From IMG/VR virus record IMGVR_UViG_3300043466_002666: a DNA stretch of 64,000 nt. The stretch is one strand, 5' to 3'. A program made the position numbers and the translations under genes. Below are positions 1,862 to 2,184 of the stretch, piece after piece. The DNA comes from a virus. Every line of letters begins with the position of its first letter. The first letter of the stretch is position 1. The notes under the pieces are model-generated. The model made no database searches. It was not told the origin of the DNA and saw nothing but the letters and a program-made list of their open reading frames with translations.

Positions 1862-1876
1862 GTTCGGATTTCCGAA

Positions 1877-1884
1877 AATAAATA
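1877..1884 (+). promoter_or_regulatory. T4-type late (gp55) promoter for the riboswitch-peptide unit
   Basis: AATAAATA (T4 late consensus TATAAATA) 7 nt before the first aptamer. Confidence 0.6.
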
Positions 1885-1891
1885 GTAGTAT

Positions 1892-1978
1892 CGTTCATCC
1901 ACTTATGTGGACGGAAGTAAGCCGACTCGGAACGGATCGTTCATCGGGAAACCGACGCAAAAGCCGACTGAAGGAACG
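1892..1978 (+). ncRNA. Tandem glutamine riboswitch aptamers (glnA / downstream-peptide motif class)
   Basis: Two units, CGTTC-A-TCCAC(TTAT)GTGGA-CGGAAGTAAG-CCGACTC-GGAACG and CGTTC-A-TCGG(GAAA)CCGA-CGCAAAAG-CCGACT-GAAGGAACG. P1 CGUUC/GAACG, the P2 hairpin and the CGGAAGUA / GAAGGAACG segments match the glutamine aptamer consensus. Confidence 0.85.
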
Positions 1979-2010
1979 CTCTTTAACCTAAAAAACTAAG
2001 GAGAAACCTA

Positions 2011-2157
2011 ATGTCACAAGCAACTTATCGTGGTGCTCATTACGACACCGAAACTCGTAAAAATCAAATCGCATCAAATTGGTTGACAGTTATTCGTCAG
2101 CAAATTGAAAAAGAAGAAAGACTCAAGCAAGCACAACTTGCCATGGCAATGAAATAA
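2011..2157 (+). CDS. 48-aa YRG-motif peptide, DUF4278 / IF17 N-terminus-like
   Basis: Not in ORF track. MSQATYRGAHYDTETRKNQIASNWLTVIRQQIEKEERLKQAQLAMAMK. AAGGAG SD at 1998-2003, double TAA stop, terminator follows. Confidence 0.85.
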   Translation: MSQATYRGAHYDTETRKNQIASNWLTVIRQQIEKEERLKQAQLAMAMK

Positions 2158-2160
2158 TAA

Positions 2161-2184
2161 AAAAGGGGGCTAAATGCCCCCTTT
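2161..2184. terminator. Probable bidirectional terminator between the peptide gene and regA
   Basis: AAAGGGGGC-TAAAT-GCCCCCTTT perfect stem between convergent genes. Confidence 0.85.

Follow-up and report, generated by a model that had tools for sequence, protein, structure and literature searches.

Glutamine-sensing RNAs of the glnA class, tandem copies among them, were described in 2010 (Weinberg et al., PMC2864571), and lists of non-coding RNAs in T4-like cyanophages include glutamine riboswitches (PMC9602691; PMC9964418). The cyanobacterial genes gifA and gifB encode inactivating factors of glutamine synthetase (GS). IF17 of Synechocystis, the gifB product, joins a DUF4278 N-terminus to an IF7-like C-terminus that binds GS in an arginine-dependent manner, and gifB itself is controlled by NtcA repression together with a glnA riboswitch (PMC6212724; PMC6316151). 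The gifB aptamer is a glutamine-dependent ON switch, for which a model of pairing with the ribosome binding site (RBS) has been proposed (Klahn et al. 2018, PMC6212724). Marine picocyanobacteria, the hosts of many of the phages that carry the element considered here, use the type 2, or Downstream-peptide, aptamer (PMC6212724), and their DUF4278 proteins have no IF7-like C-terminus (PMC6212724; PMC6316151). We analysed a window of 64,000 nucleotides (nt) from IMG/VR virus record IMGVR_UViG_3300043466_002666, in which positions 1877-2184 hold a small plus-strand cassette made up of a late-promoter motif, two glnA-class aptamers, an open reading frame (ORF) of 48 amino acids (aa) and a terminator hairpin. 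The riboswitch is of a kind already known and is ordinary for this phage group; what appears to be new is that the 48-aa peptide is an in-frame fusion of two micro-ORFs that most related phages keep separate.

The locus shares features with each of these systems. With the glnA RNAs of Rfam family RF01739 it has in common the covariance-model family, the CGUUC/GAACG P1 stem, a covarying P2 and a small P3, as well as a position in the leader 5' to a small DUF4278-type ORF; it differs in that each unit of the phage tandem carries one deviant half. It resembles gifB of Synechocystis sp. PCC 6803 in having a glutamine aptamer in the 5' untranslated region followed, just after P1, by a sequence able to pair with the RBS, and resembles IF17 in joining a YRG/DUF4278-type N-terminus to a separate C-terminal module. 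However, IF17 has 149 aa and the phage peptide 48, the phage C-terminal helix shows no detectable kinship to the IF7-like GS-binding domain, and, while the NtcA box of related phages is spaced as in the repressed gifA promoter, the window copy stands behind a late phage promoter motif. The Downstream-peptide (Glutamine-II, RF01704) units of Prochlorococcus and marine Synechococcus, such as Yfr6, likewise place a glutamine-sensing leader before a very short YRG peptide, but their aptamer is of another class (aptamer 1 of the window scores only 18.4 bits on RF01704, below the gathering score of 33), and no helix partner ORF is reported for them in the literature, host genomes lying outside this comparison. 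The nearest described copy is that of phage S-CREM1, where the syntenic site between hsp20 and regA has a glnA riboswitch in its annotation (PMC9964418, Table 4) and, after it, a 48-aa hypothetical protein that is 81% identical to the window peptide. By blastn, the leader and the start of the ORF are found in 86 phage records, including S-PM2, P-SSM2, P-SSM4, P-HM1, P-HM2 and P-SSM7.

The explanation that we favour overall, with a probability of roughly 55%, is that the cassette is a late-transcribed glutamine ON switch whose fused peptide product feeds back on nitrogen assimilation. A late (gp55-type) promoter would start the mRNA right at the first of the two glnA-class (type 1) aptamers. 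At low glutamine, the CUCUUUA that follows P1 of aptamer 2 would pair with the Shine-Dalgarno (SD) sequence and block translation; once glutamine is bound, this pairing would be released and the 48-aa peptide made, much as proposed for gifB. The peptide would then act back on the nitrogen assimilation of the host, GS being the leading candidate target.

The evidence for a fusion comes from the related loci. Most cyanomyovirus loci in IMG/VR have the same riboswitch followed by two micro-ORFs, ORF1 and ORF2, which are annotated as separate genes in S-PM2. The YRG motif is repeated two or three times in the 43-75 aa of ORF1 (MSQATYRGCQYNTD...YRGVAYRPC...), whose proteins score 21.8-31.2 bits against Pfam DUF4278, one of four lying above the cut-off of 25.3. 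ORF2 encodes 27-28 aa (MNWLNVIRKQIQKQNRLRQAQLAMAMK, beginning MNWL...); its start codon shares an ATGA with the stop of ORF1, the end of which also contains an AGGAGG, an arrangement that has the look of translational coupling. The window peptide is best read as residues 1 to ~22 of ORF1 fused in frame to ORF2. Comparison by hhalign of the 48-aa family alignment (A1) with the ORF1 family gave 98.2% (E = 4.5e-14) over residues 1 to ~22; residues 23-48 are 69-81% identical to the stand-alone ORF2; and PHROGs splits the peptide between phrog_5049 (residues 1-22, 2e-6) and phrog_545 (residues 23-45). In the DNA alignment, the stretch of 65-92 nt with the second YRG repeat, the internal SD and the start of ORF2 is absent from the fused forms. 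Only one YRG repeat remains in the window peptide, where the YRGxxY motif is present as MSQATYRGAHYDT. We infer that the fusion arose by deletion from the split form, since the latter is far more widespread.

Further fusions, with other junctions or with the modules in reverse order, were met in four predicted proteins (P0027, P0028, P0040 and P0044) in a profile search across 1.84 billion representatives, and it can be argued from the repeated fusion and the tight coupling that the two modules work together. The first-pass annotation of this DNA, made from the sequence alone, had singled out the helical C-terminal half of the peptide as a possible effector, and its standing as a separate part gains support from the 27-28-aa ORF that stands alone in most relatives. 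This module is modelled as a 27-aa basic amphipathic helix. AlphaFold2, given the family alignment, predicts one long helix over residues 3-47 with a mean pLDDT (per-residue model confidence) of 84, the C-terminal half being the most confident.

The ORF itself is well conserved. In the 48-aa family, 23 protein clusters are 48-49 aa long and 19 alignment columns are invariant; two of the clusters had been called with longer N-termini. Across 18 distinct DNA versions the frame is kept, with no frameshift or stop, and the variable sites fall 23/17/39 on the three codon positions; because third positions vary most, we consider the ORF to be coding. The peptide has no usable match in Pfam, NCBIfam or PDB sequences, and in the ESM Atlas it yields weak leads (0.78-0.79), one of them a cluster with DUF4278 on 33% of its members. 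A profile scan with A1 of species-representative genomes gave a single cellular match, on a 7,956-bp contig of an Acidimicrobiaceae metagenome-assembled genome, which we take to be a mis-binned phage contig, as its matches to the window resemble those of S-CREM1.

The leader at 1890-1982 matches RF01739 with 51.4 bits against a gathering score of 35 (E = 2.3e-8), as had been predicted from the sequence, and this is the only Rfam family to reach its gathering score within the 64 kb. On this basis, the segment is assigned to the glnA, or type 1, glutamine riboswitch family. Related loci were collected from IMG/VR, and a covariance model, R1, was built from 25 single aptamers; it recovers the aptamer in nearly every related locus and gives aptamer 1 of the window 63.5 bits, as compared with 36.2 bits for the same unit scanned alone on RF01739. 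When 50 distinct phage aptamers are aligned, standard pairs make up 99.2% of cells; P1 hardly varies, and each of the four P2 pairs has changes on both sides. The covariation score was reached by none of 500 column shuffles, and pairing falls to 32-55% when the partners are slid by 1-3 columns. The reading as a tandem depends on the separate scans of the two aptamers and on comparison with the related loci, because the best Rfam alignment is itself a composite. Among 57 distinct units with complete flanks, two compact aptamers like those of the window were the commonest arrangement (30), followed by a first aptamer with a second that has an insert of 140-143 nt in its P2 hairpin (18), a single aptamer (7) and a single aptamer with a long insert (2). 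Aptamer 2 has a variant 5' half in the window, and this variant form is kept in related loci.

The insert-bearing form deserves a description of its own, the window having no insert. In 16 distinct loci, the 140-143-nt insert in the P2 hairpin of aptamer 2 codes for a conserved ORF of 50-51 aa (MEALILTCLQAQL...KNDLIWEIKQI.PKECKIDAKAD), whose ATG lies in the 5' strand of P2 and whose UGA stop lies in the aptamer core (CUGAAGGAACG). These aptamers keep the closing P2 stem, usually as UCUAU/AUAGA. The ORF matches phrog_504 weakly and amounts to a gene nested within a riboswitch aptamer. The loci in question are L002 (2047-2218, DSL-LC02), L017, L019, L020, L022, L023, L036, L039, L046, L056, L059, L064, L066, L068 (1246-1417), L071 and L072.

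Between the aptamers and the ORF, the CUCUUUA/UAAGGAG pairing appears in both the minimum-free-energy (MFE) and the centroid folds of the window, and the linker alone forms the anti-SD/SD hairpin at -4.4 kcal/mol (z = -2.55 versus shuffles). The two sequences are kept in most of 41 distinct linkers; other linkers of the CUCUUU type, when folded, predict the same pairing, and a second linker type, CACUUUAC...GUAAAGGAG, keeps a shifted pairing of 6 bp. There is no terminator between aptamer and ORF in the window. Because the anti-SD/SD layout matches the gifB model, we read the unit as a probable translational ON switch.

Transcription of the window copy would depend on the motif AATAAATA, which is of the NATAAATA class published as the late promoter of cyanomyoviruses (PMC2984593). 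ATAAATA is depleted in the window, with 20 matches versus 34.75 expected. All but two of these 20 lie on the minus, coding strand, where 14 of 18 stand within 50 nt upstream of an ORF start, and the late motif is found 6-48 nt upstream of the genes for the major head, portal, tail sheath, scaffold, baseplate wedge and tail tube proteins. The late-promoter reading is thus well supported by context and, given the short distance between the motif and the aptamer (Table 1), the transcript is predicted to start at about the first aptamer base. The first-pass annotation was right on the anatomy of the cassette, every element that it listed having been located where it had been placed: the late-promoter motif, which recurs before the six structural genes just named; the two CGTTC...GAACG units with P2 hairpins; the CTCTTT that can pair with AAGGAG, which does so in the MFE fold; the 48-aa ORF, which is now listed, belongs to a conserved family and has a coding substitution pattern; and the 9-bp terminator stem. 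The function that it proposed, a peptide that tunes nitrogen assimilation in the host late in infection, is plausible.

Most relatives show a further layer of control. A GTA-N8-TAC NtcA box is present in 44 of 49 distinct upstream regions of relatives (those of L001, which is S-CREM1, L005, L006 and L012-L082 included), and in 32 of these regions it ends 24-26 nt before P1. In L035, for example, the box lies 11 nt upstream of a TATAAT box, and in nine relatives it is just upstream of a TTGACT -35 element. The box of the NtcA-repressed gifA promoter is centred at -30.5 (PMC6316151), and the spacing in the 32 relatives is the same as in that promoter. The late motif occurs in 12 of the 49 regions, nine of which have an NtcA box too. 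In L006, whose flanks are 99.6% identical to those of the window, a 106-aa plus-strand gene (phrog_507) and an NtcA box lie between two copies of the late promoter (2487-2880); this segment is missing from the window (compared at 1871-1890) and from L011, so that the window riboswitch comes to stand directly behind the late promoter of the upstream gene.

The riboswitch, which is that of gifB, and the gifA-like NtcA spacing of the relatives are both shared with GS inactivating factors, and for this reason the peptide most likely feeds back on nitrogen assimilation, possibly through GS. This suggestion is drawn from regulation alone. GS is a tentative choice of target, and another nitrogen-related target is only slightly less probable. 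More speculatively, and in our judgement rather unlikely, the helix micro-ORF could supply the effector partner that the short DUF4278 peptides otherwise lack; the fused or coupled modules would then be a minimal phage analogue of IF17, shutting down GS or another step of nitrogen assimilation at high glutamine. If that were so, IF-type control would operate in picocyanobacteria, where it is considered absent, and the recurrence of independent fusions would be a sign that the two peptides function as a single unit.

Several observations weigh against the reading of a glutamine switch whose peptide acts on nitrogen assimilation. Upstream of the aptamer, the window has the late motif alone and no GTA-N8-TAC, because the segment with the 106-aa gene and the NtcA box found in L006 is missing. 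The anti-SD pairing is partial or absent in a minority of linker types. In four metatranscriptome runs over 1300-2700, no contig covers 2052-2286, and the RNA-library contigs reach only the part of the leader that is common to relatives (1805-2033); DNA carry-over is possible in these libraries, and they speak neither for nor against transcription of the 48-aa ORF. As to the peptide, Pfam DUF4278 (PF14105) is not matched even at E <= 10, so that the link to DUF4278 first proposed for it is only partly supported: it fails in a direct search with the model, although residues 1-22 share homology with those phage ORFs that DUF4278 does match. For the helix module there is no match in Pfam, NCBIfam or PDB sequences and no similarity to the IF7-like C-terminus of IF17, its alignment (A5) giving an hhalign probability of 0.3% against the IF17-type protein P0062, and a review considers IF-type GS control to be ruled out for marine picocyanobacteria (PMC6316151). 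Finally, the top Rfam alignment joins halves of the two aptamer units, and aptamer 2 scanned alone scores 34.6 bits, 0.4 under the RF01739 gathering score.

Some of the points that concern the peptide favour an account in which the RNA works as described and the peptide acts on something other than GS, such as PII/PipX/NtcA signalling, GOGAT, a transporter or the translation machinery. On this account, picocyanobacteria and their phages would use the DUF4278 and helix modules for a separate function. The want of similarity between the helix module and the GS-binding region of IF7 and IF17 is what such an account would lead one to expect, as is the exclusion of IF-type control from marine picocyanobacteria (PMC6212724; PMC6316151). 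No larger protein bearing the helix module was found in the profile search across representatives, so the module was not met joined to a larger domain that would hint at its target, and by hhalign it is unrelated to the long DUF4278 protein P0061. On the other hand, a glutamine riboswitch together with an NtcA box at gifA spacing, as in the relatives, is the signature of GS inactivating factors, and none of the alternative targets has direct support. We regard a non-GS target of this kind as possible and somewhat doubtful. A short resemblance between NWLNVIRKQI of the helix module and NFWNHIQGKIQ of P0062 (4/11 identities) was considered and is not significant.

The points that concern the RNA raise a different question, namely whether the leader holds two independent sensors or one composite aptamer made of the 5' half of unit 1 and the 3' half of unit 2, perhaps toggling between tandem and composite folds. 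The best Rfam alignment takes exactly this composite form, skipping 46 nt, and scores well above either unit singly. In each tandem unit one half is canonical and the other deviant, which fits a composite, and the inner GAACG-GAU-CGUUC is able to form a hairpin of its own and does so in the MFE fold. A relative that is 85-88% identical to the window, L007, has a single aptamer (2910-2972) and keeps the 48-aa ORF. Its aptamer consists of the canonical halves of both units, 5' from unit 1 and 3' from unit 2, put together as in the Rfam alignment, and looks like the product of a deletion from one AAGCCGACU repeat to the other. Yet in 30 distinct loci neither unit lacks a complete P1, P2 or P3 element and the two P2 stems covary independently, glnA RNAs are known to occur in tandem (PMC2864571), and the P2 stem of unit 2 is kept at 3-8 consecutive pairs even where it contains the 140-nt insert. 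Two aptamers, each complete, therefore remain our preferred description, and a composite or toggling leader, though a real alternative, seems improbable.

That the locus is a decaying remnant, in which deletions took away the upstream gene with its NtcA box (as seen by comparison with L006) and then half of ORF1 with its second YRG repeat, leaving a 48-aa ORF with no working product, is very hard to reconcile with the fixed length of 48-49 aa, intact frame and third-position excess across the 18 DNA versions and 23 clusters, with the retention of the fused form in the isolate S-CREM1 and with the intact riboswitch, SD and terminator of the window.

The glutamine riboswitches of cyanophages have been listed many times, but we met with no paper in which their targets are tested or discussed; in the literature searched, there was no ligand-binding test of any phage copy of the glnA element and no paper that links the phage peptides to GS inactivating factors. 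Nor did we find a description of the ORF1/ORF2 coupling, the fusions, the NtcA boxes or the aptamer-nested ORF, in a limited search of the literature which leaves room for their having been noted elsewhere. The window represents the smallest version of the system, with one promoter motif, two aptamers and a single product of 48 residues, and the fusion provides both a concrete hypothesis of cooperating peptides and a simple construct with which it can be tested. Phage S-CREM1 and its host Synechococcus CB0101 have the same fused form and may serve as an experimental system. If the peptide acts on GS or another nitrogen enzyme, phages would carry their own copy of a host nitrogen feedback loop, and the widespread DUF4278 peptides of marine picocyanobacteria would gain a function; if the peptide has no such action, the locus would simply add one more ordinary case to the known phage riboswitches.

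Table 1. Coordinates of the cassette and of the adjoining elements in the 64,000-nt window.
Feature	Position	Strand	Basis or details
hsp20	1304-1861	minus	Pfam HSP20, 1.3e-17
Inverted repeat TTCGGA-TT-TCCGAA, perfect	1863-1876		Read from sequence; directly upstream of late-promoter motif
T4-type late promoter motif AATAAATA (NATAAATA class)	1877-1884	+	Sequence; 5 nt before Rfam match, 7 nt before P1
glnA-class aptamer 1	1890-1937	+	P1 1892-1896/1930-1934 CGUUC/GAACG; P2 1898-1902/1909-1913 UCCAC...GUGGA
glnA-class aptamer 2	1936-1982	+	P1 1938-1942/1974-1978; P2 UCGG...CCGA; variant 5' half CGCAA--AAG, canonical 3' half
Predicted anti-SD CUCUUUA	1979-1985	+	Directly 3' of aptamer 2 P1; CTCTTT at 1979-1984
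SD UAAGGAG	1997-2003	+	7 nt before ATG; AAGGAG at 1998-2003
48-aa ORF, MSQATYRGAHY start	2011-2157, including stop	+	2011-2076, YRG (DUF4278-type) module; 2077-2154, NWL helix module
Predicted bidirectional intrinsic terminator hairpin	2162-2184	both	On + strand: 9 pairs, 6 G-C, loop of 5
regA	2189-2623	minus	Pfam Translat_reg, 3.1e-45

The window is part of a T4-like cyanomyovirus (Kyanoviridae) of freshwater, and its sequence was recovered almost whole in lake-water and freshwater metagenomes. The nearest isolate is S-CREM1, an estuarine Synechococcus phage, with 75% identity across 88% of 1700-2400. The cassette is a small plus-strand unit within a minus-strand block, the adjoining genes (the end of the DNA polymerase gene, a 140-aa ORF, hsp20, regA and the clamp-loader genes) all lying on the minus strand. 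The terminator that follows the 48-aa ORF has a stem of 12 pairs when read on the minus strand (2187-2159), where it would serve the convergent regA.

On the other side of the cassette, minus-strand positions 1861-1832 hold a strong sigma-70-like promoter, TTGAAA-18-TATAAT (11/12), and because it faces hsp20 the region 1773-1890 can be described as a putative divergent promoter region. For hsp20 itself, an ATG near 1772, behind an AAGGAG, is more likely to be the start than the TTG at 1861. The perfect inverted repeat next to the late-promoter motif could be an operator or a hairpin, and L081 has a similar upstream inverted repeat, TTCGGATAGCCGAA.

Two minor observations concern other YRG proteins. 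In three estuary/aquatic runs (X15, X17 and X18), contigs span aptamer 2, the linker and the start codon and then diverge into other YRG ORFs, and because of this divergence they are assigned to related phages. The YRG part of the profile was also matched in 10 separate stretches of a 2,849-aa predicted protein, P0025, which could be either a giant YRG-repeat protein or a miscalled frame.

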